Assembly (NCBI GenBank): GCA_027623195.1
Contig: JAQBUT010000016.1
Coordinates: 1-64,000 of the forward strand
DNA from: Chloroflexota bacterium
GTDB lineage: Bacteria > Chloroflexota > Dehalococcoidia > Lucifugimonadales > JADFKI01
DNA: 64,000 bases
Direction: 5' to 3'
Part shown: piece after piece, positions 7,073-46,660 of the stretch
How the letters are laid out: every line of letters starts with the position of its first letter
Position numbering within the stretch: position 1 is the first letter of the stretch
The notes under the pieces: model-generated
Database searches by the model: none
What the model was told of the DNA's origin: nothing
The model's input: only the letters and a program-made list of their open reading frames with translations
Made by a program: the position numbers and the translations under genes

Positions 7073-7822
7073 TCACTGTGCTGTAATACCACCGTCGATG
7101 ACAAGTTCTGAACCCGTCATGTAAGAAGACTCGTCGGATGCGAGAAAGAGAACGCCGTAGGCAACGTCATCGACTGTGCCTACCTTGCCCAGAGGAATAC
7201 GCGATATCGAGGCCGCAAGCCCCTCAGGCGTACCTATATTACCCGCAATCATCTCGGTATCAATTGGACCGGGATGCACGGAGTTTGCTCGTATGCCATC
7301 CTTCGCTAGTTGGATGGCAGTGTTTTTGGTGAACAGGCGTACGCCGCCCTTGGAGGTCGAGTAGGCGCTTCCCCTGGCGCTACCTACCAGGCCGGCAGTA
7401 GAGGACAGATTGACGATCGAGCCGCCCCCAGCGTCGCGCATAGCCTGTATAGAGTGCTTTGTGCCGAGGAAGACCCCCTTGGTGTTGACCTCCATGATGC
7501 GGTCCCATTCGTCCTCTGAGGTCGCCTCTATGGGAGTGCGGCTGTAAATGCCGGCATTATTTATCAGAACATTCAGTTTGCCAAAGGTCTCAACAGCCTT
7601 GGAAACGGCGTTCTTCCAGTCGTCGGAGCTAGTAACGTTCAGCTTTACGAATAGCGCCTTGCCACCGGATTCGTTGATCTGCGCTTCTACCTGCCGACCT
7701 TCATTCTCAAGAAGATCACCAATCACCACGGCAGCGCCTTCCTTGGCGAACAGTATGGCTTCGGCAGCACCCTGGCCGCGCGCTCCACCACTGATGAGGG
7801 CTACTTTTCCGTCAAGTCTCAT
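7073..7822 (-). CDS. Short-chain dehydrogenase/reductase (3alpha,20beta-HSD/cyclopentanol dehydrogenase-like)
   Basis: SGGARGQG, NNAG, YSTSK, NSVHPG. Start at MRLDGK. Confidence 0.9.
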   Translation of the reverse strand: MRLDGKVALISGGARGQGAAEAILFAKEGAAVVIGDLLENEGRQVEAQINESGGKALFVKLNVTSSDDWKNAVSKAVETFGKLNVLINNAGIYSRTPIEATSEDEWDRIMEVNTKGVFLGTKHSIQAMRDAGGGSIVNLSSTAGLVGSARGSAYSTSKGGVRLFTKNTAIQLAKDGIRANSVHPGPIDTEMIAGNIGTPEGLAASISRIPLGKVGTVDDVAYGVLFLASDESSYMTGSELVIDGGITAQ

Positions 7823-8091
7823 GATTCCCCCGGACAAGTTAAATCTTTGCCGTCGTGATTCTAGCACTTATCGATGGGCAAGCAAAATAGCTTGTATTGA
7901 TCCCTGCCACCCAAATGCCATTTTTCTGCCTCTTATCCTTCGACAGGTTCAGTAAGGTTGGGACTTTAGCAGCAACGTTCGCAGTGAGCCACTCCAACCA
8001 TAGCTTCCTTAAAAACTAAGAATACTAATTCCGAGAAGGGCGTTGCAAAGATTGAATCTTAGGCGGAATTTGGCATTAGTATAAAAAAGAC

Positions 8092-8121
8092 TTGACGCGA
8101 ACAATCGTTCTGTTCTATTAT
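8092..8121 (+). promoter_or_regulatory. sigma70 promoter with LexA (Cheo/DinR-type) SOS box GAACAATCGTTC in the spacer
   Basis: TTGACG 8092-8097, GAAC-AATC-GTTC 8099-8110, TATTAT 8116-8121. Confidence 0.7.
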
Positions 8122-8158
8122 GTTCTAAAGATAAGAAATAAGACGTGAGGGCAAGGTC

Positions 8159-8446
8159 ATGCAAAAGGCAGTTAAAGCTAACAGGGCCGCGCAGATTGAA
8201 TTGCCGGGGATGCCAAGGCCCCGCCAAGCTACTACAGTCCTCTCATGCTGCGACTTGGTTCCAGGTCAGCAGGTGGTATATGTGGGCAAGATCATGGGTG
8301 GCCCACGATATGGCATTCGCGGTATCGTTACGCAGGCACTGCAACGCAAGGCTGTGGTGGATATGGGAAGGCACGGCACCTGGAACGTACCTTACTTCTT
8401 TCTCACCCTTCCTCAGGAAGACCTCGAACTGGCTCAGGCAGCGTAA
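8159..8446 (+). CDS. Small hypothetical protein, predicted SH3/KOW-like beta barrel
   Basis: 95-aa ORF directly behind the promoter. Pattern LVPGQQVVY..G.RGIV....RKAVVD...GTWNVP..FL. Confidence 0.65.
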   Translation: MQKAVKANRAAQIELPGMPRPRQATTVLSCCDLVPGQQVVYVGKIMGGPRYGIRGIVTQALQRKAVVDMGRHGTWNVPYFFLTLPQEDLELAQAA

Positions 8447-8601
8447 GTCGCTTTCGGGTTTCTGCCCAGAGTGCCCAAAGCTGGCCGCCCCGTATGTGGT
8501 TGAACGCGTCTGAGCGCTAGCACTACGCCCCATTTCCATTTTGAGACATAACCCGAATATCGATTTCAAATCTGTTTTAAATTCTACAGGAGGCCGCTGC
8601 A

Positions 8602-9696
8602 TTGAATAACGCTAGAGCCGGATCCATTCGCGTTAAGGTTGTTGGCGTTGGAGGCGCCGGTGGTAATGCCCTTCTGCGAATGGTTAAGGGCGGCCTGCGC
8701 GATGCAGAGGTCATAGCGTTGAACACGGACGTTCAAGCCCTGCGTAAGCTTAACGGCATTTATTCTTTTGCCATCGGGCCGAACGCCACGAAAGGTCTGG
8801 GCTCAGGTGGGCACCCGGACGCAGGCAGGAAAGCCATTCGGGAAAGCAGCGAACAGGTAGCAAGCCTGCTGCAAGGCTCCGACATGGTGTTTATTACCGC
8901 CGGTATGGGTGGCGGGACTGGTACCGGAGCGTCTGCCGTAGTAGCTGATTTGGCTCGGAAGCAGGGCGCTCTTACCGTGGGGGTCGTTACCCTACCCTTC
9001 TCTTTCGAGGGGCCGCGTCGGAGGGCCGTTGCAGAACAGGGCCTCTATAATTTGCAGCAGAAGGTAGACACCCTCATAACTATTGATAACGACAGGCTGC
9101 TTCCCTCATTGGACGGCAACGCCTCACTGGAGATGGCATTGAAGGCCGCGGACGAGGTGTTGCGGCAAGGCGTCCAGGGCATAACTGACATCATCACTGT
9201 GCCAGGCATGATCAATGTGGACTTCGCTGACGTGAAGTCCATTATGGGCAACGGGGGTACGGCGTTCATGGCTGTCGGCGAGGGCAAAGGCAAGTGGGCG
9301 TCTAGGGAGGCGGCGGAGATTGCGGTCTCCAATCCACTATTCGATGCGCCAATGCAAGGCGCTTCCGGTGTATTGTTCAACGTAACAGGCGGAAAGGACC
9401 TTACGCTGGCTCAGGTGCACGAAGTGGCGGAAATCATTCGTAAGACTGCCAGGCCTGACGCTAACATCATCTTTGGAGTGGTTCAGGACAAGAAGATGAA
9501 AAAGCGCGTGAGCATTACGTTAGTCGCGACTGGCGTTGTATCGGCAAGATCATTTGAGGAAGTCGAACCAATTGACGACGGCGAAACGGCCAGTTCGTCC
9601 GAATCCACTAACGACAGCGTTGGCAAGATCTTGGAATTTTCGTCAGCCAACGGTCACGCAATGGCTGGCGCAGGCGAAACTCGAAAACTTATCTAA
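8602..9696 (+). CDS. ftsZ: FtsZ (paralog lacking the canonical C-terminal peptide)
   Basis: VGVGGAGGN, NTD, GMGGGTGTG tubulin signature, T7 loop GMINVDFADV. RBS AGGAGG then TTG start. Confidence 0.93.
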   Translation: MNNARAGSIRVKVVGVGGAGGNALLRMVKGGLRDAEVIALNTDVQALRKLNGIYSFAIGPNATKGLGSGGHPDAGRKAIRESSEQVASLLQGSDMVFITAGMGGGTGTGASAVVADLARKQGALTVGVVTLPFSFEGPRRRAVAEQGLYNLQQKVDTLITIDNDRLLPSLDGNASLEMALKAADEVLRQGVQGITDIITVPGMINVDFADVKSIMGNGGTAFMAVGEGKGKWASREAAEIAVSNPLFDAPMQGASGVLFNVTGGKDLTLAQVHEVAEIIRKTARPDANIIFGVVQDKKMKKRVSITLVATGVVSARSFEEVEPIDDGETASSSESTNDSVGKILEFSSANGHAMAGAGETRKLI

Positions 9697-10568
9697 CCGA
9701 AGAATCCGCTCTTGATGTGCTCCGCGATTGTCCCAGCCACCAACTCGGGTCGCTGAATAGGCACGTCGTGGACGCTGTCCTCGAACCACACGGTTTGGCT
9801 CCTGGGGAGTAGCCGTGACGCCTCTGCAATGGACTCTTCCTTACGCCAACGTCGGTCGGCCACTGATTCGTTGTCCTTCTCGCGGGCAGGCATTAGTAGG
9901 ACAGGGCACTGCACCTGTGGATATAGCGCGGGTGGGCTGTGGTCCCATAGCGCCTCGATGATGCGTATGTGGTTTTCTCGGCTGAGTCTTGCGGTTATAG
10001 TTTCGTCGCCGTTCTGTCGGAAATTGGAACGCAAAATTTCGATATGTGCGGGTGTCAGCATGGAAGGCGTGCGCCATGTGCGGGCTCGTTCTTCTAACTT
10101 CTGGAAGGTCATGCCTTCCCACACAGGAGGCGCCATGTCCTCTTTCGCCTGCTCCAATGTATTCCCCGGACGTGCCGCTATGTTAATAGTGCCACCGTCT
10201 ACAAAACCCAGGCCCTTAACGTTGTCCTGATGAGTCACCGCGTACTCTAGCGCAACATCGCCGCCCCACGAGTGGCCGAAAACAATCGGCTGTCTAATAC
10301 CCAGGCTGCCAATGAACTCATCAAGGTCGCCAACGACCGTTGAGAAGTCATAGCCATGGTCGGGCGTATCGCTCTCCCCGTGGCCACGTTGGTCCAGAGC
10401 CACGACCCTATTGTTCTCCACAAGAATGGGCGCAACCATGTTCCATATGTGCGAGGTTGACGCCAGGCCATGTAGCAGAACGACAGGTTGGCCCGTACCA
10501 CCCCAGTCTCGGTAATGGAAACTCAGGCCGTGCAGCGTGACCCATTTATCCTGCGGCGATTGGGGCAT
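9693..10568 (-). CDS. Alpha/beta hydrolase
   Basis: LLHG, DQRGHG, GHSWGG nucleophile elbow, C-terminal His. GGAG RBS before ATG 10568. Confidence 0.88.
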   Translation of the reverse strand: MPQSPQDKWVTLHGLSFHYRDWGGTGQPVVLLHGLASTSHIWNMVAPILVENNRVVALDQRGHGESDTPDHGYDFSTVVGDLDEFIGSLGIRQPIVFGHSWGGDVALEYAVTHQDNVKGLGFVDGGTINIAARPGNTLEQAKEDMAPPVWEGMTFQKLEERARTWRTPSMLTPAHIEILRSNFRQNGDETITARLSRENHIRIIEALWDHSPPALYPQVQCPVLLMPAREKDNESVADRRWRKEESIAEASRLLPRSQTVWFEDSVHDVPIQRPELVAGTIAEHIKSGFFG

Positions 10569-27734: not shown

Positions 27735-28814
27735 ATGACCAAACCTTTGCTAAATACACCTGATAAGCAGACTGACAGCCTCCCAGGCCTGTTCCTAAGG
27801 TATAGGGCGGAGATTGGGACTGCGTTACGTCAGGCTATTACCCCTCAGAACTCCTCTAAAGAAGCCATTGCCGTGTATGACATGTTGCGTTACTACATGG
27901 GCTGGGCCGACACGGAGGGCAATCCCATTGTGGCCACGGAGGGCAAGTACCTGCGCCCGACCCTTTGTCTTTTCGCATGCCAGGCCACGGGTGGTTCGAT
28001 TGAGCAGGCCATGCCGGCGGCAGTGGCGCTCGAGTTGATACACAACTTCTCACTTATTCATGACGACATTCAGGACCAGGACGAGACCCGCCACCACCGC
28101 AAAACGCTGTGGGCGGTCTGGGGCATTCCCAAAGCTCTGGTCGCCGGAAACGTCCTTAGAGTGGTCGCCGATTTTTCCTTGGAGGAGCTGATCCGACGCG
28201 GCGTGGACGCAGAGACCGCCCTGGGTGTGGCCAGTCTCCTCACCGAGGCGTATCTGGAGATGATTGAAGGTCAGTACCTGGACCTTTCTTTTGAGGGCCA
28301 GTCCGACCTGGGCATGCAGGACTACCTGGGCATGATCGCTCGTAAGACCGGAGCGCTGATCAGGTGCGCATTCACCATGGGCGCCCTCATTGGTTCGGGC
28401 GACAAGGCAACGGCAAACGCCTTCCGATCCAGCGGAGAGGCTCTGGGCTTCATCTTTCAGGTCCGAGACGACGTTTTGGGCGTCTGGGGTGACGAGAAGA
28501 CTACAGGCAAACCTGTAGGCGCTGACATCAGAAGAAAGAAAAATTCCTTTCCGGTCGTCCATGCTATGTCTCAAGCCAAGGGCGCTGAAAAGCAATCGCT
28601 TCTGGACATCTACAGGCAAGACGAGGTCGCCGAGGGAGATGTTGGCCGGGTGTTGGAGATAATGGATCGAGCGGAAACTCGCGGATGCGCCCACGAAATG
28701 GCGATGGAGCATGGCCAGGACGCGTCAGATGCTTTGGAGTCGGTGGAGCTTGAACCCAGTGCCCGAGCAGAAATTGAGGAGCTAATCCAGTTCTTAGTGG
28801 TGAGAGAACACTGA
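27735..28814 (+). CDS. Short-chain polyprenyl diphosphate (FPP/GGPP) synthase
   Basis: GKYLRP, HNFSLIHDDIQD (Phe at -5 implies short chain), GQYLD, KT, FQVRDD. Confidence 0.92.
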   Translation: MTKPLLNTPDKQTDSLPGLFLRYRAEIGTALRQAITPQNSSKEAIAVYDMLRYYMGWADTEGNPIVATEGKYLRPTLCLFACQATGGSIEQAMPAAVALELIHNFSLIHDDIQDQDETRHHRKTLWAVWGIPKALVAGNVLRVVADFSLEELIRRGVDAETALGVASLLTEAYLEMIEGQYLDLSFEGQSDLGMQDYLGMIARKTGALIRCAFTMGALIGSGDKATANAFRSSGEALGFIFQVRDDVLGVWGDEKTTGKPVGADIRRKKNSFPVVHAMSQAKGAEKQSLLDIYRQDEVAEGDVGRVLEIMDRAETRGCAHEMAMEHGQDASDALESVELEPSARAEIEELIQFLVVREH

Positions 28815-28842
28815 TGGTTATCAGGTCAAGATTTGGGAGTGC

Positions 28843-29874
28843 GTGATGGGTAGACCTTTGGAACTAGCATTTAAAACCGGTTGGTACATTGTCAAGAATA
28901 AGATGATGGGAAGGAAACGCTTCCCCCTGGTTACGATGCTTGAGCCTTTGGAGAAGTGTAACCTCGCTTGCCTAGGCTGCGGTCGTATCCGCGAGTACGA
29001 ACGCGTGCTAGACCGAACGCTCTCCGTAGAACACTGCCTGGCGGCAGTGGAGGAATCAGGCGCGCCAATCGTGTCCATCGCCGGCGGAGAGCCGTCTCTA
29101 CACCCGCAGATAGACGAGATCGTGAAGGCCATCACGGCGAAGAAGAAGTTTGTATTCATGTGCACCAATGCCCTTTTAATGGAGCGCATGATGAAGAAGA
29201 TTCCCCCGTCCAAGTACTTTTGCTTCGTCGTTCACATGGACGGGATGGAAGAGGCCCACGATAAGTCTGTATATCGTAAAGGCGTTTTCCAGATCGCCAT
29301 GCGCGGAATACGCAAGGCGCTGGACGAGGGCTACCGTGTGACCACGAATACCACTGTATTCAACGGCGTTGACGAAGAAGACCTCGTAACGATGTTCAAG
29401 ATGCTCACGGACATGGGCATAGAGGGCTGCATGGTTTCTCCGGGTTACCAGTTCGACACGGTGCCTAATCAGAACCTGTTCATCTCCAGGCAGAATGCAC
29501 GTAAGGTTTTCAGGAACATCCTGGACCCAGCGCGAAACATCCGCTTCTACAACAACCCTCTTTATTTGGATTTCTTGAGAGGGGATCGGGAATATCAGTG
29601 CACCGCCTGGTCCAATCCTACGTATACAGTATTGGGTTGGCGCGAACCCTGCTACCTGCTGGGCGACCGACACACCCAGGACATCAACGACCTGTTCAGC
29701 GAGGAGATGTGGTCGGAGCGTTACGGAGTTGGTAACGACTCTCGCTGCGACAACTGCCTCATGCACTGCGGATTTGAATCTGCGTCGATTTTCGGCACCT
29801 TCGAAAGGCCAGCCGATGCGCTTCGTCTTCTGAAAAAGGGCGCGTTGCAAAACAGCGGTATCGGAACGGCTTAG
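28843..29874 (+). CDS. hpnH: Adenosylhopane synthase, radical SAM
   Basis: KRFPLVTMLEPL.CNLACLGCG, SIAGGEP, C-terminal CTAW..P...PCYL...RCDNCLMHCGFE; next to shc. Confidence 0.92.
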   Translation: MMGRPLELAFKTGWYIVKNKMMGRKRFPLVTMLEPLEKCNLACLGCGRIREYERVLDRTLSVEHCLAAVEESGAPIVSIAGGEPSLHPQIDEIVKAITAKKKFVFMCTNALLMERMMKKIPPSKYFCFVVHMDGMEEAHDKSVYRKGVFQIAMRGIRKALDEGYRVTTNTTVFNGVDEEDLVTMFKMLTDMGIEGCMVSPGYQFDTVPNQNLFISRQNARKVFRNILDPARNIRFYNNPLYLDFLRGDREYQCTAWSNPTYTVLGWREPCYLLGDRHTQDINDLFSEEMWSERYGVGNDSRCDNCLMHCGFESASIFGTFERPADALRLLKKGALQNSGIGTA

Positions 29875-29901
29875 GCCGAGAAATCAACTGAGTACAGGGG
29901 C

Positions 29902-30681
29902 ATGCTGGCAATACTTGTAGCGTTCGAGCGAGAGATTAAGGACTACCTGCGTGCAGGGCAGTTCAGGTTGGTAGAGAAGGAAGACGCCTTTCGGTTTTAC
30001 CTGTCGCCTGTTTGCCGGGACGTGGTCGTCGTGGAAGGCGGCTTTGGTCCCCAAATGTCGCGGGACGCCGTAAGACTAGTGGCAGACAAGTACCCGCCAG
30101 ACCTCCTGGTGTCAGCCGGATATGCCGCTGGCTCAAGGCCGGATATGGTCACGGGCGAGGTTGTCGTCTGCAGTCGGCTACAAAGCCTGACTGGCGAAGC
30201 AGCGTATTGGAACGTGGATACGATTCTCGGAAAATCTGTTCCGGAATCAGTGCTGCCTTACGACCAGTGGAACGACATTGAGGTACGTTGGGGCTCCTGC
30301 TTAACAATGCCCTACCTGGTGTCGGGCAGCTCTATGAAGGAGTGGTTGGGTCGAACCTTCGCGACCGACGTTATAGATATGGAAAGCTACTGGGTAAGCG
30401 AGGCCGCTGAAGAACTTGGCATACCGCATATTATCTTGCGCGCCGTTTTTGACCCCATGGGGCAAACGCTGCCTTCGTTCGTCGCCAAGTCGCTTGATGG
30501 CTCGGCTGTCCAGACGGCATTAAGGGCTGCATCATATATGGCCTCCCATCCGACATCGATAAAACGCACCATTGCTCTATTAACCCAGTCCAGGCAGGCA
30601 ACAGCGTCGCTCAGCCGATTCCTGTTGAATCTGACCCCAGATGGCGCCCAGGCCTTAAACCTAGCGTTGGGCGCAAGGTGA
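29902..30681 (+). CDS. hpnG: Hopanoid-associated nucleoside phosphorylase/nucleosidase
   Basis: PNP/MTAN fold motifs (SAGYAAG, IDMES, RAVFD), ..LP...; lies between hpnH and shc. Confidence 0.8.
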   Translation: MLAILVAFEREIKDYLRAGQFRLVEKEDAFRFYLSPVCRDVVVVEGGFGPQMSRDAVRLVADKYPPDLLVSAGYAAGSRPDMVTGEVVVCSRLQSLTGEAAYWNVDTILGKSVPESVLPYDQWNDIEVRWGSCLTMPYLVSGSSMKEWLGRTFATDVIDMESYWVSEAAEELGIPHIILRAVFDPMGQTLPSFVAKSLDGSAVQTALRAASYMASHPTSIKRTIALLTQSRQATASLSRFLLNLTPDGAQALNLALGAR

Positions 30682-30689
30682 AATAAGTC

Positions 30690-32792
30690 ATGGACACTTT
30701 GTCCACCGGTAATTTAGTGGAGCAAACATCTCATCTGGACAAATCTATCCAGATGAGCCATGACTACTTGCTTAACGCCCAATACGCGGAGGGCTACTGG
30801 TGGGGTGAACTTGAGTCAAACCCGACCATGGAAGCCGAGTTCATACTGCTGAACTATTTTCTGGGCATCAGGGACGAGGGGCGCAACCGGAAACTGGTCA
30901 ACCGCATTCTGGGCCAGCAGCGCGACGATGGGACGTGGGGTCAGTACTACGGTTCGCCAGGCGACCTAAGTACGTCGGCCGAATGTTACTTTGCGCTGAA
31001 GCTGTCCGGCATTTCCGCCGATGAGCCAAATATGGTGAAAGCCAGGGATTTCATTCTGTCCAAGGGTGGTATGCCGAACGCAAGGGTCTTTACGAAGATA
31101 TGGTTCTCTCTGTTTGGCCAGTGGGACTGGAAGGGCGTTCCGGTGATGCCGCCGGAGTTGATGCTGATTCCAGACTGGTTCCCACTTAATCTTTATGACT
31201 TCTCCAGTTGGGCAAGGGCGACAGTTGTGCCTCTGCTTGTGCTGATGGACCGGAAGCCTGTTCGGAAGATACCAGACGAGGCCTGCGTCGACGAGCTATA
31301 CATTCGTTCGCGAAAGGATACCGCCTACGCCATAAAGCGGCCATCCAAGCTGATCGGGTGGGAATCGCTTTTCTATGCCAACGACGTTGTGCTTCGACAG
31401 TTAGAACGACTGCCGTGGATACCGACTCGCGGCCAGGCGGTGCGCCGTGCTGAACGCTGGATCTTAGATCATCAGGAAGAGGATGGCAGTTGGGGGGGTA
31501 TACAGCCGCCCTGGGTATATTCCCTGATGGCCCTTCACGAGCTGGGCTACGGCCTGGATCATCCTGCCATAAAAAAGGGACTAGAGGGGTTCGAGGCCTT
31601 TGTTATTGAGGAAGACGACACTCTAAGAGTGCAGGCATGCGTCTCGCCCCTGTGGGACACTTGCCTGACGATGATAGCGCTGCTGGACTCCGGCTTAAGG
31701 CCGGACCACCCGTCCCTGGCAAAAGCGGGCAGCTTCCTCGTGAAAAAGCAGGTTTTGAACGGTGGCGACTGGCAGGTGAGAGCCAAGGGTACGCCTCCCG
31801 GAGGATGGGCCTTCGAGTTCGCCAACGATAGCTACCCGGACCTTGACGACACGGCGGAAGTGGTAATGGCGTTGAATAAGGTGAACCTCGACGCCTACGA
31901 AGGCGAAAAACAAGAGGCTATTGAACGGGCATTACAGTGGCTTATGGGCATGCAGAGTTCCAACGGCGGCTGGGCCTCCTTCGACAAGGACAATTCCAAG
32001 GGGCTCATTTCCAAGATTCCGTTTTCTGATTTCGGCGAGACTATCGACCCGCCCAGCGTTGATGTTACTGCTCATATCCTGGAAATGTTGGGCCAATTGG
32101 GTTTCTCCGATGACATACCTGTCGTCCAGAAAGCGTTGGCTTTTATCACAAATGATCAGGAGCTTGATGGTGCTTGGTTTGGTAGGTGGGGGGTTAACTA
32201 CATATACGGTATTGGGGCAGTATTGCCTGCCTTAGAGGCATTGGGCATCGATATGAAACAGAATTTCGTTCATAAAGCCGTCCATTGGGTCATCGAACAC
32301 CAGAACGAAGATGGTGGATGGGGAGAAAGCTGTTCTTCTTACGTGGACTCAGCGTCACGAGGACGAGGTCCCAGCACTGCTTCTCAAACGGCCTGGGCGC
32401 TAATGGCGCTTATCGCCGCTGGAAAAAGCGAGCATCCGTCTACGTTAAATGGAGTGGACTACCTGTTGAGAACACAAGTGTCTGACGGCACTTGGGACGA
32501 GCCCTACTTTACAGGAACAGGCTTCCCTGGCTATGGTATCGGCCAGCGTTTGCCCGACTATTTGAACCCGGAGGACCCTGGATATCAAGGTGAAGAACTC
32601 TCGGCGGGCTTCATGATCAAATATCACATGTATCGTATCTACTGGCCTTTGACGGCGTTGGGACGATATAGAAGCCATATGAATGGCGAGAGGCGTATCA
32701 TTAGTCGTAGTCGCGGGGTGGCTATTGCGGGGAAAAACCGGGTTGAAAAACCTAGACGAAAAAGATTGAAACAACTTATACCGATGTGGTAA
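30690..32792 (+). CDS. shc: Squalene-hopene cyclase
   Basis: GYWWGELE, QW repeats, SPLWDT, catalytic YPDLDDTA, WFGRWGVNY.YG, STASQTAWA, FTGTGFP. Confidence 0.97.
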   Translation: MDTLSTGNLVEQTSHLDKSIQMSHDYLLNAQYAEGYWWGELESNPTMEAEFILLNYFLGIRDEGRNRKLVNRILGQQRDDGTWGQYYGSPGDLSTSAECYFALKLSGISADEPNMVKARDFILSKGGMPNARVFTKIWFSLFGQWDWKGVPVMPPELMLIPDWFPLNLYDFSSWARATVVPLLVLMDRKPVRKIPDEACVDELYIRSRKDTAYAIKRPSKLIGWESLFYANDVVLRQLERLPWIPTRGQAVRRAERWILDHQEEDGSWGGIQPPWVYSLMALHELGYGLDHPAIKKGLEGFEAFVIEEDDTLRVQACVSPLWDTCLTMIALLDSGLRPDHPSLAKAGSFLVKKQVLNGGDWQVRAKGTPPGGWAFEFANDSYPDLDDTAEVVMALNKVNLDAYEGEKQEAIERALQWLMGMQSSNGGWASFDKDNSKGLISKIPFSDFGETIDPPSVDVTAHILEMLGQLGFSDDIPVVQKALAFITNDQELDGAWFGRWGVNYIYGIGAVLPALEALGIDMKQNFVHKAVHWVIEHQNEDGGWGESCSSYVDSASRGRGPSTASQTAWALMALIAAGKSEHPSTLNGVDYLLRTQVSDGTWDEPYFTGTGFPGYGIGQRLPDYLNPEDPGYQGEELSAGFMIKYHMYRIYWPLTALGRYRSHMNGERRIISRSRGVAIAGKNRVEKPRRKRLKQLIPMW

Positions 32793-39901: not shown

Positions 39902-41362
39902 ATGACCGAACAAAGGGTCATTTCCCGTGCAACCGGAGTAGAAGACAACGAATATAAATGGGGCTTCGACTTCGATATTGAATCGGACAAAGCTCCCAAA
40001 GGACTCAGCGAGGACATTGTCCGGCTGATATCCCAAAAAAAAGGCGAGCCTGAGTGGATGTTGGAATGGCGTCTTAAGGCCTACAAGTACTGGTTGACCC
40101 TCGATAATGAGGAGCCAAAATGGGCCAACATCGACTACCCGCCCATCGACTTTCAGGACATGTACTACTACGCGGCACCCAAGTCGTCGGCCGAAGCTCC
40201 TCAGAGCATGGATGACGTGGACCCTGAAATACGGGAGGCCTTCAACAAGCTGGGCATACCTTTGATTGAGCAGCAACGCCTGAGCGGCGTGGCCGTGGAC
40301 GCAGTGCTGGACAGCGCATCCGTGGCCACCACCTATCGCAAGATGCTTGAGGAAGTGGGCGTTATATTCTGCTCCGTCAGCGAGGCCGTGAAGACCCACC
40401 CTGACCTCGTAAAGAAGTACCTTGGTTCAGTGGTTCCCTATACGGACAACTTCTTCGCTGCCCTAAACGCTGGGGTTTTCAGCGACGGTTCCTTCGTCTA
40501 CGTACCTCCGGGAGTGCGTTGCCCCATCGAATTGATGACCTACTTCCGCATCAACGAACTGAACACGGGACAGTTCGAGCGAACCCTGATTATCGCGGAC
40601 AAGGGCAGCTACGTAAGCTACCTTGAAGGCTGCACAGCGCCTATGCGCAAGACACATCAACTCCACGCTGCAGTTGTTGAGCTTATAGCGCTGGACGATG
40701 CGGAAATCAAGTACTCGACATTGCAGAACTGGTTTCCTGGTGATAAGGAAGGCAACGGCGGAGTCTACAATTTCGTGACGAAGCGTGGCGCCGCAAGGGG
40801 CAAGAACTCGAAGATATCCTGGACGCAGGTGGAGACAGGCTCGGCCATCACGTGGAAGTACCCCAGCGTCATTTTGCAGGGTGACAACTCCGTGGGTGAG
40901 TTCTACTCCGTCGCGTTGGTAAACAACTACCAGCAGGCTGATACCGGCACGAAGATGATCCACATCGGCAAGAACACAAAAAGCACGATCATCGCCAAGG
41001 GCATATCCGCTGGTAAGGCGCAAAACACGTATCGCGGCCAGGTTAAAATAATGCCCTCGGCAACGAACGCTCGGAACTTTACGCAGTGCGATTCGCTCCT
41101 CATAGGGGACAAGTGTGGCGCACACACAGTCCCGTATATAGAGGTGCGGAACCCCACGGCGCAGATGGCTCACGAGGCCACCACCTCCAAGGTCGACGAC
41201 AGTCAACTGTTCTACCTGCAACAACGCGGGATAGGCCTGGAGGACGCCAACTACATGATCATAAACGGCTTTTGTCGTGGCATCTTCAAGGAGTTGCCAT
41301 TCGAGTTCGCGGCTGAGGCCTCTCAGTTGCTAAGAGTAAATCTGGAGGGAACCGTAGGGTAA
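39902..41362 (+). CDS. sufB: Fe-S cluster assembly protein SufB
   Basis: [53 protein letters not shown]. Confidence 0.97.
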
Positions 41363-41364
41363 AG

Positions 41365-42144
41365 ATGACTCAGGAAATCAAGAATAGCCCAGTGCTTGAG
41401 GTCATAGACCTCCACGTTTCAATCGAAGATAAAGAGATACTAAAGGGCGTTAACCTGACCGTTAACATCGGCGAGGTACACGCTATCATGGGTCCAAACG
41501 GCTCAGGTAAGAGTACTCTCGCCAATGTTTTGGCGGGGCGACCTGAATACACGGTCACTGGAGGCCAGGTCCTGTATAAGGGCATGGACCTTCTCAGCAT
41601 GCTGCCGGAATTGCGCGCTCGCGAAGGCATATTCCTTGCCTTCCAGTACCCGGTGGAGTTGCCGGGAGTTCGCACGTGGCAGTTCCTGAAGGCCTCTGTA
41701 GACGCCATTCGACAGCACAGGGGCGAGAAAGTGCTGAGCGTCCGTGAATTCGACAAACTTTTGGATGAAAAGCGTGAGATCGTCGAGATGGACACGGATC
41801 TGGTGAAGCGCTCGGTAAACGAGGGTTTCTCCGGCGGAGAGAAGAAGCGGAACGAGATAATGCAAATGGCGCTTCTCGATCCCACATTGGCGCTGCTAGA
41901 CGAGACGGACTCGGGTCTCGACATCGACGCCTTGAGGATTGTCTCCGAGGGCGTTAATAAGGTACGTTCCGACAAGAACGCCTTCGTTCTCGTGACACAC
42001 TACCAACGAATTCTGAACTACATAACGCCAGACTATGTACATGTACTGGTAGATGGCAGTATCGTGCGCTCGGGAGGCCGTGAGCTAGCCCTGGAACTTG
42101 AAGACAAGGGCTACGAATGGCTGCGAGACCAGGTAGCGGTGTAG
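41365..42144 (+). CDS. sufC: Fe-S cluster assembly ATPase SufC
   Basis: GPNGSGKST, FLAFQYP, GFSGGEKKRNE, LDETDSGLDIDAL. Confidence 0.97.
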   Translation: MTQEIKNSPVLEVIDLHVSIEDKEILKGVNLTVNIGEVHAIMGPNGSGKSTLANVLAGRPEYTVTGGQVLYKGMDLLSMLPELRAREGIFLAFQYPVELPGVRTWQFLKASVDAIRQHRGEKVLSVREFDKLLDEKREIVEMDTDLVKRSVNEGFSGGEKKRNEIMQMALLDPTLALLDETDSGLDIDALRIVSEGVNKVRSDKNAFVLVTHYQRILNYITPDYVHVLVDGSIVRSGGRELALELEDKGYEWLRDQVAV

Positions 42145-42157
42145 GTTAAGCCAATAT

Positions 42158-43492
42158 ATGACACAGACACTAACTAAATACCAACAGTACGAAACGGACT
42201 ACAAGAGCTTCGATGACTCGATTGGCAGCGGCCAGCCCGAGTGGCTACGGTCGATGCGGCTAAGTGCATGGTCACGCTTTCAGGAGCTAGGCTTTCCGAC
42301 AGCGCGGCGAGGCAACGAGCCCTGGAAGTACACCAACGTGGGGCCTATAGCCGACGCAAGTTTGGCTTTGGCTACCAAGCCAGCGCAGGTTACCCTCGAT
42401 CAGATCAAGGCCACAGCGCCTTGGGACGATAGCTGGCTCAACATGGTTTTTGTAGACGGACATTACGTCTCTGAATATTCCGGAAGCGCGTCTGGCAACG
42501 TCACGGTGACTAGCCTCGCGCAGGCCATTGCTAACGGCGACGAATTGGTAGAGCAACACCTGGGGCAAGCTCCTCAGTTCGAGGAAGCCGACGGGTTCGT
42601 CTCTCTTAACACGGCGTTCGTGCGGGACGGCGCGGTGCTCCACATCAAACAAGGTGTTACCGCTGATAAGCCCGTTCACCTGCTCTTCGTTTCTTCGGGA
42701 GCAGATGAGGCCACAGTGTCCCATCCCAGGGTACTCCTGGTGTGCGAGGCCAACAGTAAGGCCACACTAATCGAGAGCTTTGTCGGCCTGGACGAGAACG
42801 TCTACTTCACCAATGCCATCACCGAGATTTCGATGGCCTCAGGCGCAGAGCTGCAGCACTACCGACTAATGCAGGAGAGCGAAAAAAGCTTCCACGTTGG
42901 GTCCGCCCGCGTTCAACAAGAGTCGGATAGCGTCTACAGGTCCAAGGTGTTCGAGAGGAAAGTCGGCCTCGGTAGGTTCGACCTCTACACCAACATGGAT
43001 GGCGAGGGCTCCAGTTGTGACCTGAAGGGCCTTTACTACACGTCGGGCTCGCAGCACGTGGACAATTACATAAACATCAACCATCAGAAACCGCACTCCA
43101 CTAGCCGTCTGTACTACAAGGGCATTCTGGACGGGAAATCCAGGGCCGTATTTGGCGGGACGGTTTACGTGCAGCCTGGCGCCATCAAGACGGACTCTCG
43201 TCAAGAGGACAAGAACCTGGTGCTTTCGCCCGACGCAGAGGTGGATAGCAAACCGGCTCTTTTCATATACGCCGACGATGTAGTTTGTGGCCACGGCGCA
43301 ACAGCCGGCAACATTGACCAGGACACGGTGTTCTATATGCGGAGTCGCGGTCTGGATCTTGAAGCGGCCAGCCGTCAACTGATCTACGGATTCGCGGATG
43401 AGATCATCGAGGCTGTGGAAGATGACGGCCTCCGCCAGTACCTTGAAAAGCTGTTCCTGGAATCTCTTCCCAGCTACAAGTTTGAATTCTAA
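42158..43492 (+). CDS. sufD: Fe-S cluster assembly protein SufD
   Basis: E.WKYT, KGILD..SRAVF.G, KP.L.IYADDV.CGHGAT, FYMRSRG. Confidence 0.95.
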   Translation: MTQTLTKYQQYETDYKSFDDSIGSGQPEWLRSMRLSAWSRFQELGFPTARRGNEPWKYTNVGPIADASLALATKPAQVTLDQIKATAPWDDSWLNMVFVDGHYVSEYSGSASGNVTVTSLAQAIANGDELVEQHLGQAPQFEEADGFVSLNTAFVRDGAVLHIKQGVTADKPVHLLFVSSGADEATVSHPRVLLVCEANSKATLIESFVGLDENVYFTNAITEISMASGAELQHYRLMQESEKSFHVGSARVQQESDSVYRSKVFERKVGLGRFDLYTNMDGEGSSCDLKGLYYTSGSQHVDNYININHQKPHSTSRLYYKGILDGKSRAVFGGTVYVQPGAIKTDSRQEDKNLVLSPDAEVDSKPALFIYADDVVCGHGATAGNIDQDTVFYMRSRGLDLEAASRQLIYGFADEIIEAVEDDGLRQYLEKLFLESLPSYKFEF

Positions 43493-43672
43493 CTTTAAGT
43501 AGAGTTTTCAAGCGAGTGTTATCTGGCAGAGCCGGATTGCCCGTTATGGCATTTTCAGGTCGGAGCTAAATTTTGGCTGGTGTGTTCTGAGGCTTTCGAT
43601 GGGAGGTATCCCGCTAGCGAAAGTACCTCGTCGTTGGATTGGAACATAAGATGAGCCGGAAAATATAGAAAA

Positions 43673-44122
43673 ATGTACGATTTACAAGAGCTATACCAGG
43701 AAGTTGTGATGGACCATAATCGCAGTCCACGCAACTTCCGTAAATTGGGAAATGCTAACCGGTCGGCGGAGGGCTTCAACCCTCTGTGCGGTGACCAGAT
43801 CACGTTGTACTTGGAAGTGGACGACGACGATAAGATCAAGGACATCGGCTTTCAAGCTGGAGGTTGCGCTATATCCAAAGCGTCAGCTTCAATGATGACG
43901 GACGTTGTCAAAGGCGTCAGCGTGAAAGAGGCTGAACACATTTTCAATAATTTTCGTCAGATGATAACCCAGGAAGACTACGATGCCGAAATTCTAGGCG
44001 ACGCGGAGATACTATCCGGTGTCTCGCAATATCCGGCGCGAATCAAATGCGCAGTGCTATCTTGGCACACGCTGAAGTCTGCGCTAGATGGCGCTGACAC
44101 TCAGCGAATTACCACCGAATAA
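43673..44122 (+). CDS. sufU: SufU/NifU-like sulfur transfer protein (copy 1)
   Basis: LYQEVVMDH..SPRN, NPLCGD, GCAIS.AS, RIKCA. Confidence 0.93.
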   Translation: MYDLQELYQEVVMDHNRSPRNFRKLGNANRSAEGFNPLCGDQITLYLEVDDDDKIKDIGFQAGGCAISKASASMMTDVVKGVSVKEAEHIFNNFRQMITQEDYDAEILGDAEILSGVSQYPARIKCAVLSWHTLKSALDGADTQRITTE

Positions 44123-44142
44123 CGGGGCAGAGGTATTTCCCA

Positions 44143-44580
44143 ATGAACATTCCCATTAAAGTCGACTACGGGGTGCGGGCGCTGGTTGATATTGCCATGA
44201 ACGGCGATGGTAACCCGGTGAGGGCCAGCGTGATAGCGGGCCGGACATCTATACCGGAGCCTTACCTGGCACAGGTGCTGCATGGGCTTAGCAGGAATGG
44301 CATCATCAAGAGCGTGCGCGGCCCTCTGGGTGGTCACTTACTGGCCAAGCCACCCTCCGAGATACGTCTAAGCAAGGTTATGGCCTGCCTGGGTGGCACC
44401 GAGACCCCCGTGGCCTGTTTGGATGACGCATCGTCATGTATCCATGTCCCTGCATGTGCTCAGAGAGAAGTTTGGCGAAATGTTGCAGAAACTGTGTTCA
44501 AGATCTTAGACTCTACAACTATAGAAGACCTGGTCAACAGGACTCGTTCAAATCCGGCGCGAATTGAGGCCGTAGTTTAG
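44143..44580 (+). CDS. Rrf2-family (IscR-like) transcriptional regulator
   Basis: DYGVRAL, YLAQVL, SVRGPLGG, three Cys (CLDDASSCIHVPAC). Confidence 0.9.
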   Translation: MNIPIKVDYGVRALVDIAMNGDGNPVRASVIAGRTSIPEPYLAQVLHGLSRNGIIKSVRGPLGGHLLAKPPSEIRLSKVMACLGGTETPVACLDDASSCIHVPACAQREVWRNVAETVFKILDSTTIEDLVNRTRSNPARIEAVV

Positions 44581-44627
44581 CACCAGGACTTTGGTTAGTC
44601 TAAATAACGTTCACAGGGGGTAAAGAA

Positions 44628-44933
44628 ATGGCGTTTCAAAAAGTAGGGAAAGTAGACGAGGTTCCCGAGGGCAAGTCCAAAGTATTCGAAGTTGGCAACA
44701 GACCCATCGCAGTTTGCAATTTCGAGGGCAAGCTTTACGGCATTGAGGACGTATGTACCCACGACGGGGCATCATTCAATGCCAGCGCTCTAATCGGTTG
44801 TGAAATCGAATGCCCTCGGCACGGCGCACGCTTCGACGTGACCAACGGCAAAGTCACGGACCTTCCTGCAGTTATGCCTGTTGAAACATTTGAAGTGCGT
44901 ATCGATGGAGACGACATCGAGATTGATGTCTAG
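44628..44933 (+). CDS. Rieske-type ferredoxin
   Basis: CTHD and CPRHGARFD. Confidence 0.92.
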   Translation: MAFQKVGKVDEVPEGKSKVFEVGNRPIAVCNFEGKLYGIEDVCTHDGASFNASALIGCEIECPRHGARFDVTNGKVTDLPAVMPVETFEVRIDGDDIEIDV

Positions 44934-44982
44934 GTCCACTCGCAATTATGTGGACTCTCTATTTCCGAAGGGATAGTGGAAT

Positions 44983-46233
44983 ATGCTCGACGTTAGCAAA
45001 ATAAGAGAGGACTTTCCGATCCTCTCCAAAAAAGTGTACGATGGCCAGCCTTTGATCTGGTTGGATTCTGCCGCGACATCGCAGAAGCCTCGTTCCGTAA
45101 TTCAGTCCATCGTGGACTACTACGAAGGCTTCAATGCCAACGTACATCGTGGTGTACACGCCCTTAGCATAGAGTCCACCGCGGCCTTTGAAGACGCCCG
45201 ACAGAAGGTTGCTGATTTCATTGGCGCCGAGAGTTCAGAGTGCATTATATGGACACGCAACACTACCGAGAGCATTAATCTCGTAGCGCACACATGGGCC
45301 CAGGAAAATATCCACGCCGGCGACGAGATTCTCGTTACGGCTTTGGAGCACCACAGCAATCTCGTGCCCTGGCAGAAGGTGGCTCGTGACAAGAAAGCCA
45401 CGCTCCGTATAATTCCGCTGGCCAAGGACCAGTCACTGGACCTGAGCGAGATTGATACGCTGATTAACCCGCGAACCAAGCTTGTTGCCATGGTTCAAAA
45501 GTCCAACTCCATCGGAACCACCAACCCTGTTAAAGAACTAGCCGCCAAGGCCAGGGCCGTCGGCGCAGCTGTGCTGGTGGATGGCGCACAGAGCGTCCCG
45601 CACATGCCGGTGGACGTGGCGGATATCGACTGCGATTTTCTGGCCTTCTCGGGCCACAAGATGTTGGGGCCCACGGGAATAGGTGTGCTGTACGTGAAGC
45701 ATGACATACTGGAGCGCATGGAGCCCTTCCTGCGTGGCGGTGATATGGTGCTCGAGGTTAGCTATGAGGATGCCTCTTGGAATAGCCTTCCTTGGCGCTT
45801 CGAGGCGGGCACTCCGAATATGGCGGGGGCCATAGGTATGGGCGCTGCCATCGATTATTTGAACGGGCTTGGCATGGAAAACGTCCGCGACCACGACATC
45901 CAGTTGACCAAACATGCCCTCGACTCCTTCAAGGAGCTGGAAGAGGAGTTGGAGATTTACGGGCCTAAAGACCCTGCTCTTCGGTCTGGGGTCGTCTCCT
46001 TTCACCACCCGGATGTGCACCCTCACGACCTGGGTACGGTGCTGGACAGACGAGGCATAGCCATACGCACAGGTCACCACTGCACCATGCCACTGGTAAG
46101 GTCGCTTGGTGTTCCTGCTACTGCAAGGGCTAGCTTCTACCTGTACAATACCAACGAAGAGGTCGATGCACTGCTGGACGGGATTAAAGAAGCCCTGAGG
46201 TATTTCGGGAATGGCGCTGGAACGGCTGGATGA
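44983..46233 (+). CDS. sufS: Cysteine desulfurase SufS
   Basis: LDSAATSQKP, ANVHRG, EHHSN, SGHKM.GPTG, RTGHHC. Confidence 0.96.
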   Translation: MLDVSKIREDFPILSKKVYDGQPLIWLDSAATSQKPRSVIQSIVDYYEGFNANVHRGVHALSIESTAAFEDARQKVADFIGAESSECIIWTRNTTESINLVAHTWAQENIHAGDEILVTALEHHSNLVPWQKVARDKKATLRIIPLAKDQSLDLSEIDTLINPRTKLVAMVQKSNSIGTTNPVKELAAKARAVGAAVLVDGAQSVPHMPVDVADIDCDFLAFSGHKMLGPTGIGVLYVKHDILERMEPFLRGGDMVLEVSYEDASWNSLPWRFEAGTPNMAGAIGMGAAIDYLNGLGMENVRDHDIQLTKHALDSFKELEEELEIYGPKDPALRSGVVSFHHPDVHPHDLGTVLDRRGIAIRTGHHCTMPLVRSLGVPATARASFYLYNTNEEVDALLDGIKEALRYFGNGAGTAG

Positions 46234-46660
46234 TCTTTATCGCGATGCTATATTGGAGCATCGCCGTAACCCTAGAAACGCCGATAAACTCGAAGACTTC
46301 GACACCACGGGTGACGCCGTTAACCCCTTCTGCGGCGACGAGATACACCTTCAGCTAAAGCAGGACGACAAGGGTCGTATTACTGCGGTGGGCCTGCAAG
46401 GCGAGGGCTGTTCTATCAACCGGGCATCAGGCTCAATGATGTCCGAGGCCGCCAAAGGCAAGACCCCTACGGAAATTCGCGCCCTTACCGACTGGGTAAG
46501 AAAGCTAATGCAGGGTGACCCTGAAGCCGAATCCCAATTGAGTCCCGAGGGTGACCTTCGAAATCTTTTCGGCGTGCGAGAGTACCCCATCCGCATCAAG
46601 TGTGCGCTGCTTCCCTGGTCCGCGCTGGACGAGGCGCTTTCCAAACTTTCCGACGGCTAG
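46211..46660 (+). CDS. sufU: SufU/NifU-like protein (copy 2)
   Basis: LYRDAILEH..NPRN, NPFCGD, GCSI..AS, RIKCALLPW; overlaps the sufS end. Confidence 0.9.
   Translation: MALERLDDLYRDAILEHRRNPRNADKLEDFDTTGDAVNPFCGDEIHLQLKQDDKGRITAVGLQGEGCSINRASGSMMSEAAKGKTPTEIRALTDWVRKLMQGDPEAESQLSPEGDLRNLFGVREYPIRIKCALLPWSALDEALSKLSDG

Follow-up and report, generated by a model that had tools for sequence, protein, structure and literature searches.

How might bacteria in whose genomes neither SulA nor FtsW is found couple DNA repair to cell division? The question is raised by positions 8,092 to 9,696 of a 64,000-nucleotide stretch of Chloroflexota DNA (assembly GCA_027623195.1, contig JAQBUT010000016.1, numbered C50 here; the whole stretch is called the window), where a promoter with a LexA-type box precedes a gene for a 95-amino-acid protein (the small gene) and a copy of ftsZ, whose product we name FtsZ2. 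The source genome is 87% complete. SAR202 bacteria, to one branch of which the locus belongs, are abundant in the sea and have no peptidoglycan wall. The explanation that we consider best, at a little short of an even chance, is that the locus is an SOS unit of this branch, in which a short-lived, LexA-controlled FtsZ2 disturbs the Z-ring. With an extra FtsZ under a DNA-damage switch, these bacteria may pause division while DNA is repaired, in a manner not described before.

The familiar components of repair-division coupling were not found in these genomes. FtsW/RodA was not detected in the source genome or in 5 near-complete relatives, SulA (PF03846) was not found in 5 genomes, and neither protein of the locus matches SulA. 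SAR202 bacteria are reported to lack ftsW and ftsI (PMC11994032), as well as those genes for cell wall and division (dcw) that lie between mraW and ftsA (PMC10608941). Most described SOS division brakes target FtsW or late divisome steps, FtsW being the target of the YneA/SidA type (PMC13396833). Hence, with no FtsW and no SulA found, the known SOS division brakes have no target in these bacteria.

In the original prediction, a perfect GAAC-N4-GTTC box was placed between a -35 hexamer (TTGACG) and a -10 hexamer (TATTAT), ahead of the small gene and then ftsZ. This arrangement is present as described, coordinates included (Table 1); two further GTTC copies beside the -10 hexamer had been overlooked. 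A search for lexA returned a gene on contig C23 (TIGR00498 over the cut-off), and recA is also encoded. The box is scarce in the 3.0-Mb genome, with 30 sites against about 47 expected, the fewest among spacers of 0 to 11 nucleotides; 11 of the 30 lie outside long open reading frames (ORFs). One of these stands upstream of a pair formed by an imuB-like (DNA polymerase IV-like) gene and error-prone dnaE2. Other boxed genes are, as labeled by reading of the sequence without a family search, ruvB, priA, and genes for an ImmA-like peptidase and a ribonucleotide reductase; the remaining five intergenic boxes precede genes with no visible link to repair. Degenerate boxes lie upstream of lexA (GAAC-ATTA-GTAC) and recA (GAAC-AAAT-GTAT). 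A box that is depleted genome-wide yet occurs upstream of repair genes supports SOS control. We take GAAC-N4-GTTC to be the LexA box of Chloroflexota, as the original prediction stated, and found no open-access paper confirming this. For Firmicutes and Actinobacteria, the other phyla that it named, the assignment is documented (PMC3323433). We infer from the sequence that the promoter of the small gene and ftsZ2 is bound by LexA and induced in the SOS response.

As expected from this reading, the box is conserved in Dehalococcoidia and SAR202. Among 80 named loci, all titled Dehalococcoidia, Chloroflexota, or SAR202, the small-gene promoter (-35 hexamer, box, and two more GTTC) was detected in 79; the box was perfect in 40 and had at most one mismatch in 77. 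The 4-nucleotide spacer is low in information and free to vary, making the conservation motif shaped, and retention of the palindrome in 77 loci counts against a regulator other than LexA. TTGAC occurs in all 30 relative loci, where it served as the alignment anchor, and in 75 of 78 anchored named loci. GTTCTA, itself used as an anchor, is present in 78 of the 80, with a third GTTC 6 to 7 nucleotides further on in 75 of 78. Of 151 genomes in the order, 42 contain the composite pattern and none its reversed control. From 48 listed sites with this pattern, 20 were fetched: 12 precede the small gene, 4 precede a radical SAM gene, 1 directly precedes ftsZ2, and 3 precede nothing recognized. Taken alone, the promoter scan of positions 7600 to 10200 was not significant (2 promoter-like sites versus 1.6 ± 1.2 in shuffled sequences).

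ftsZ2 (8602 to 9696; TTG start; 364 amino acids) lies downstream of the small gene, and a LexA-independent ftsZ promoter in the intervening gap would speak against the original prediction. Promoter, box, and terminator were all searched for in this gap, and none was found; nor does it contain a stable RNA structure (folding z, -0.60), and an Rfam scan of the window returned no family. Across the 45 loci in which the genes are linked, the gaps have a median length of 69 nucleotides (range, 14 to 350); none contains a box, 4 contain a promoter-like site, and 1 has a terminator-like site. Gaps that are short and rarely have their own promoter or terminator make it likely that the small gene and ftsZ2 are co-transcribed.

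Although under common control, the two genes can be separated. Of 41 relative genomes, 31 have a match to the small gene, which was found neither in 120 class-wide genomes that are at least 90% complete nor in viral contigs. Among the 30 closest loci, 28 have ftsZ2 downstream of it, as do 45 of the 80 named loci. The pairing is not obligate: another 34 named loci have the small gene and its promoter, with room for ftsZ but none there, and 1 ends too soon. In the 26 examined of those 34 loci, the neighboring genes (hydrolase, PAC2 family, or SDR) have for the most part stayed where they are. No FtsZ of more than 51% identity was found in the 33 searched genomes with an unaccompanied small gene, whose completeness is unstated; in one of the genomes compared (G296), the sole match to an FtsZ2-type protein was a 44%-identical copy. 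For the losses of ftsZ2, a FastTree phylogeny of 84 columns gives 6 changes, only 1 of them forced by starred branches.

Where the genes have come apart, ftsZ2 has kept its box. In three genomes of one genus (G207, G267, and G241), ftsZ2 is unlinked from the small gene (in G207, roughly 540 kb separate them), and each of the two genes has the promoter; the genes are adjacent in G031, of the same genus. In a further genome (G038; 90% complete), in which no small gene was found, a perfect box lies immediately upstream of a divergent ftsZ2. Shared diagnostic residues identified this copy as FtsZ2, and in the tree it falls on the FtsZ2 side, at the end of a long branch. We counted these cases as two rearrangement events (the genus and G038), not four. 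Retention of its own box by unlinked ftsZ2 argues, from sequence, that SOS control of ftsZ2 itself is under selection.

The source genome has three ftsZ genes, which rules out FtsZ2 as its only FtsZ. The second, canonical ftsZ that was looked for follows mraW-ftsA on contig C41, and its product ends in DLPPFLRR; the third is on contig C42. ftsZ2 is not at the mraW-ftsA site, which the C41 copy occupies, and it has no ftsA or dcw neighbors, as first noted; the gene pair is flanked by an SDR gene and an alpha/beta hydrolase gene. FtsZ2 scored 371 bits against TIGR00065 (cut-off, 295) and matched PF00091 and PF12327. The GTPase motifs GGGTGTG and NVDFAD, already recognized in the original prediction, are both present; loops T1 to T7 are conserved as in the canonical copies, and both filament faces are conserved. 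The one deviation is at F180 (phenylalanine in 94% of the subfamily), which is leucine in the window's FtsZ2. Identity to the canonical copy of the source genome is 51% over the core. In 5 genome pairs, FtsZ2 was 58 to 71% identical, versus 72 to 89% for canonical FtsZ. All 29 genomes (of the 41 relatives) with an adjacent ftsZ2 have at least two tubulin matches. An FtsZ that is accompanied by a further tubulin match in all of these 29 genomes, is missing in many relatives, and evolves faster than the canonical copy supports an accessory role.

In a quick tree of 70 rows (30 of 52 FtsZ2 sequences kept after thinning; Dehalococcoidia only, with no outgroup beyond the class), FtsZ2 formed a single group apart from the other sampled Dehalococcoidia FtsZ (branch length, 0.68; SH-aLRT, 100); it may stem from an old duplication or from transfer. 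A phage origin was rejected, as all 27 matching phage records are under 60% identity. Also ruled out was an assembly error or a truncated ftsZ2 tail: three assemblies from a second study have the stretch from 7900 to 9800 intact on a single contig, each differing by 16 substitutions and no indel; the substitutions listed all lie outside the box and the FtsZ tail, and the tails of homologues are conserved.

FtsZ2 differs from the canonical copies in its tail and its charge. The D(I/V/L)PxFL peptide, whose absence from the window's copy had been noted, occurs in none of 52 and none of 120 FtsZ2 tails versus 25 of 28 canonical tails. FtsZ2 tails have a median length of 48 residues versus 51.5 in canonical copies; Asn-Gly is present in 114 of 120 homologue tails, with N350 invariant in a 45-row alignment, and in 119 of 120 the last two residues are hydrophobic, mostly after K or R (NG..[KR]L[LI] end). 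Residues 316 to 364 are predicted to be disordered (predicted local distance difference test [pLDDT] under 50). To judge from these alignments, the tail has been replaced by a conserved motif of its own rather than lost. Three FtsZ2 copies end in KVA, as do some small proteins, and the C-terminal end is a degron candidate, given its likeness to ClpX C-terminal signals. The core has a median net charge of +4 and an isoelectric point of 9.3 in 52 FtsZ2 sequences, versus -13.5 and 4.8 in 28 canonical ones; in each of six pairs taken from the same genome, FtsZ2 has the higher value, and only about 10% of similar-sized proteins of the genome reach +4. Its basic residues include positions 76, 77, 80, 120, 154, 231, and 297 to 302.

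The claim that FtsZ2 cannot be tethered fits the window's copy better than the family. An N-terminal extension of 20 to 44 residues with a hydrophobic or basic start is present in 35 of the 45 linked copies (starts picked by a ribosome-site heuristic) and in 82 of 120 homologues, and 11 of the 45 pass a strict amphipathic-helix filter; this extension may bind membranes. The window's FtsZ2 lacks it, like 10 of the 45. Tethering had been framed around FtsA and SepF: the FtsA-binding peptide is indeed absent from FtsZ2, but SepF was not found in the 87%-complete source genome.

The small protein has no match in Pfam or NCBIfam. Known families were rejected for it, as only weak matches to KOW5_SPT5 (3 of 31 members) and MSSS (2 of 31) were obtained; the family comprises 65 representatives at 50% identity. 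Its structure model is a confident four-stranded barrel (core pLDDT, 85 to 92) that resembles SH3, KOW, and Tudor domains at Z scores of 7 to 8.4 with no clear winner, the best matches being 3fc3_A (Z, 8.4; root mean square deviation [rmsd], 1.3; 53 residues aligned) and NusG (Z, 7.5; rmsd, 1.4; 51 aligned). Foldseek returned nothing at an E value of ≤0.001. The SH3-like label given to the protein at the outset thus agrees with the model, which assigns it, by fold class only, to the SH3/KOW/Tudor-like barrels.

Its membership of an FtsZ module fared less well, as both a motif and a model point to the sliding clamp and not to FtsZ. Q-phi-x-[LMF] (phi, hydrophobic) occurs at the same position of the disordered N-terminus in all 80 named loci, as QxxLPG[MILF] in 58, the textbook hexamer (I/V allowed) in 13, QxxF in 8, and another form in 1; only 4.4% of the genome's proxy genes carry it within their first 40 residues. 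Modeled with the source genome's DnaN, the small protein scored 0.65, compared to 0.00 for the best of 3 controls, on a scale whose score mark is attained by 116 of 157 solved pairs and by 2 of 215 mismatched ones. The DnaN runs agreed in at least 63% of contacts, with a partner pLDDT of at least 63. Residues 11 to 23 were placed in the DnaN pocket, in contact with DnaN residues 150 to 155, 172 to 177, 243 to 250, and 371 to 375; that pocket and the beta-clamp-binding motifs are defined in PMC11139829. We predict from these models that the small protein binds the beta sliding clamp. Genomes of one genus (G014, G015, G016, G020, G021, and G024) each contain between two and four full-length dnaN matches.

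The small protein may also be short-lived. It ends in AA in 58 of the 80 loci, VA in 9, and TA in 5, and only 17 of 2,813 proxy genes of the genome end in AA. The genome's tmRNA tag, which ends in YALAA, has a similar Ala-Ala end, and the ssrA tag is a ClpXP/ClpAP degron (PMC7325246). The Ala-Ala end is thus a candidate degron by sequence.

Our preferred explanation, that FtsZ2 disturbs the Z-ring, would work as follows. DNA damage would lead to cleavage of LexA, and one promoter would then yield two proteins, each acting on its own and probably short-lived. Using its N-terminal motif, the small protein would attach to the beta sliding clamp and display its SH3/KOW barrel there, acting as a competitor or adaptor at stalled forks. 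FtsZ2, presumably an active GTPase, would co-assemble with or bundle the acidic canonical FtsZ through its polymerization faces and basic surface. Having no FtsA-binding peptide, it would dilute FtsA tethering, alter filament turnover, and delay division, poisoning the Z-ring much as first suggested, until its C-terminal end caused it to be destroyed and the delay ended. That the unit is a two-pronged checkpoint, of a kind not yet described, in which a clamp-binding SH3 protein slows or diverts the replisome and a charge-reversed FtsZ acts as a brake (or DNA-handling filament), both cleared through degrons, is a possibility that we hold somewhat more tentatively.

Several observations weigh against this explanation. 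At the promoter, the left half-site has decayed in 6 of the 30 closest loci, with the GTTC direct repeat retained; this repeat is the best conserved part of the promoter, above the left half of the palindrome, and LexA alone may be insufficient to explain it. The 34 named loci with promoter and small gene but without FtsZ2 indicate that an FtsZ2-based checkpoint is dispensable. Identity of only 51% between the canonical protein and FtsZ2 means that co-assembly is not a given. The clamp model may pass through likeness to solved clamp-peptide complexes, and neither position 5 nor position 6 of QIELPGM, the source genome's motif, is F or L. ClpX was found in 5 of 5 relatives but not in the 87%-complete source genome. 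The division block described for the accessory FtsZ1 of Agrobacterium tumefaciens acts through septal peptidoglycan, a route absent in SAR202, and its co-polymers behave like the homopolymer (PMC13732431, 10.1101/412759). Finally, both intact filament faces, a tail of canonical length (48 residues), and the N-terminal extension of 35 of 45 copies, which resembles a membrane anchor, would be superfluous in a protein that only inhibits; they suit a filament that has its own task.

A filament of this kind is the strongest of the alternatives, although we consider it unlikely. SOS-induced FtsZ2 would build a separate TubZ/PhuZ-like filament on DNA or membrane through its basic surface and leave the Z-ring untouched, and nucleoid compaction or the positioning or segregation of damaged chromosomes are suggested jobs for it. 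The basic core (+4 versus -13.5), uncommon in this genome, is consistent with such a filament, as are the long stem branch with its many subfamily-specific residues, the intact faces and conserved tail motif, and co-regulation with a predicted clamp binder. However, by its TIGR00065 score FtsZ2 is a bona fide FtsZ, its phage matches all fall under 60% identity, and no DNA-binding adaptor or centromere-like repeat adjoins the gene; moreover, the bacterial accessory FtsZs described in 10.1101/412759 localize to the Z-ring.

It is more doubtful that FtsZ2 promotes division after damage, forming a self-anchored rescue ring to resume septation or pinch damaged DNA off. An intact GTPase, as read from the sequence, and the N-terminal extension of most homologues would suit such a ring, and an N-terminal amphipathic helix anchors Odinarchaeota FtsZ1 directly to the membrane (PMC12583498). 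Against this, the window's copy and those of 10 of 45 loci have no extension and only 11 of 45 pass the strict filter, and early SOS induction of a division promoter runs contrary to the usual logic (PMC13396833). Least probable is that another factor reads the GTTCT direct repeat, or that the small gene is the sole SOS target with ftsZ2 as a passenger. In its favor are the better conservation of the repeat over the left half-site, the 34 loci with the small gene alone, and the failure to find an open-access paper that confirms the Chloroflexota LexA box. Against it, 77 of 80 loci preserve the palindrome, repair genes in the source genome are marked by it, and ftsZ2 has retained its own box in two separate rearrangements.

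The features of the locus are listed in Table 1. The ftsZ2 stop codon and that of the convergent hydrolase gene share 4 nucleotides (9693 to 9696), which leaves no space for a terminator. Elsewhere in the window, reading of the ORFs revealed polyprenyl synthase, radical SAM, and squalene-hopene-cyclase-like genes at 27735 to 32792, apparently a hopanoid-type cluster, and SUF-type Fe-S cluster genes with two SufU-like ORFs at 39902 to 46660.

Table 1. Coordinates of the promoter, small gene, and ftsZ2 features in the window
Feature	Position	Strand	Basis or remark
-35 hexamer TTGACG	8092..8097	+	Promoter scan; conserved in relatives
LexA-type palindrome GAAC-AATC-GTTC in the promoter spacer	8099..8110	strandless	Sequence; conserved in named loci
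Two further GTTC half-sites, 10-bp period, flanking the -10 hexamer	8112..8126 (8112-8115, 8122-8125)	+	
-10 hexamer TATTAT	8116-8121	+	18-nucleotide spacer from -35
ORF of the 95-amino-acid protein, unnamed family	8159..8446	+	No Pfam/NCBIfam match; barrel modeled at about residues 31-85
QIELPGM (residues 12-18), predicted beta-clamp-binding motif	8192..8212	+	Conserved motif; DnaN model
C-terminal Ala-Ala, candidate ssrA-like degron	8438..8443	+	Conserved end; likeness to tmRNA tag
155-nucleotide gap with ribosome-binding site AGGAGG (8588-8593)	8447..8601	+	
FtsZ2 GTPase core, to residue 312	8602..9537	+	Catalytic loops intact; net charge +4
Disordered FtsZ2 tail: Asn-Gly(-His) (N350), RKLI end, no DxPxFL	9538..9696	+	

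Other regions of these genomes share individual features with the locus. The lexA promoter on contig C23 carries a similar GTTCTAAAACTGTTA, like the GTTC direct repeats around the -10 hexamer in the window (8112 to 8126). The radical SAM genes under the composite promoter (L196, L201, L202, and L208, in G032, G181, G183, and G178) include three that encode complete proteins, ending in the clamp-motif-like strings QLVLAI, QLTMGL, and QLALGL. The one scanned matched the Rv2578c family best, at 352 bits (below the cut-off of 430), a family with an SOS link, and the presence of the composite promoter upstream of such genes supports SOS control. At C3:34894-37252, the boxed ImmA-like peptidase gene adjoins an XRE-type helix-turn-helix gene (labels by reading), and genes for a small Cys-rich protein, preceded by a degenerate box, and for an AlkA-like glycosylase lie beside them; this region is possibly a second damage switch under LexA, judging by its sequence. 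At C61:8705-12117, the perfect box is 184 nucleotides upstream of the ribonucleotide-reductase-like gene, and a neighboring NrdR-like protein has the clamp-motif-like string QLSFLD.

The other FtsZ copies also vary. The third FtsZ (C42:69550-70668; L004) has no DxPxFL and no box upstream, and it ends in a glycine-rich stretch followed by GGFFRR, which resembles the end of the genome's FtsA (..SRFFNPFRRNGK) and is possibly a built-in membrane anchor by this likeness. It belongs to a clade of its own that spans several families, and G025 has three copies of it. A pair of peptide-bearing ftsZ genes occurs in each of G028 (L038 and L049), G062, G124, G139, G078, and G115; in G028, both sit after an ftsA-like gene.

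What appears to be new here is the combination of SOS control with an accessory FtsZ, the charge reversal, and the predicted clamp-binding SH3 family; SOS division inhibitors and accessory FtsZs are known separately. No description of any of the three was found in the open-access literature. Both a basic FtsZ and a stand-alone SH3 protein that would bind the clamp are out of the ordinary and open to study in vitro. An FtsZ gene that has stayed under LexA-type control through two rearrangements is a concrete, purifiable candidate for coupling repair to division.

Comparison with known systems places both proteins near established types without matching any. The small protein shares with the beta-clamp partners Hda (QLSLPL) and Pol IV (QLVLGL) (PMC11139829) a Gln, an aliphatic residue, any residue, and Leu/Met, here in a disordered N-terminus; unlike them, most family members read QxxLPG[MILF], and the protein has no enzyme domain, only the SH3/KOW-type barrel. 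YneA, SidA, DidA, ChiZ, and SosA are likewise division brakes induced by DNA damage, but they are described as small membrane proteins (PMC13396833), and neither gene of the locus is of that build. With Odinarchaeota FtsZ1, FtsZ2 shares being a paralogue that is possibly membrane bound through an N-terminal helix and not a C-terminal peptide (PMC12583498); that protein is archaeal and is not known to be under damage control, and the window's FtsZ2 lacks the helix. SulA of Escherichia coli resembles the proposed FtsZ2 in LexA control, in FtsZ as the proposed target, and in proposed rapid proteolysis (PMC13396833); it is unrelated to FtsZ and prevents polymerization, whereas FtsZ2 is itself an FtsZ with both filament faces.

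The closest likeness is to FtsZ1 of Agrobacterium, which is non-essential, lies outside the dcw cluster, and has an intact GTPase and no FtsA-binding peptide (PMC13732431; 10.1101/412759). That protein, a precedent for the brake proposed here, co-polymerizes with the essential FtsZ (10.1101/412759), and its expression blocks division (PMC13732431). It lacks linker and peptide, whereas FtsZ2 retains a full-length tail with a new conserved end, and its block runs through FtsW (PMC13732431), which was not found in the SAR202 genomes studied here. We rejected FtsZ2 as a paralogue of the truncated Hyphomicrobiales type: it keeps a tail of 48 residues (median), and its host class is Dehalococcoidia. 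It differs from those paralogues in phylum, in its probably independent origin, and in its basic core. The Agrobacterium paper confines "SOS" and "DNA damage" to its reference list (PMC13732431). If our preferred explanation is right, the SAR202 locus would fill a gap in the Agrobacterium work by providing a natural condition that switches on an accessory FtsZ.

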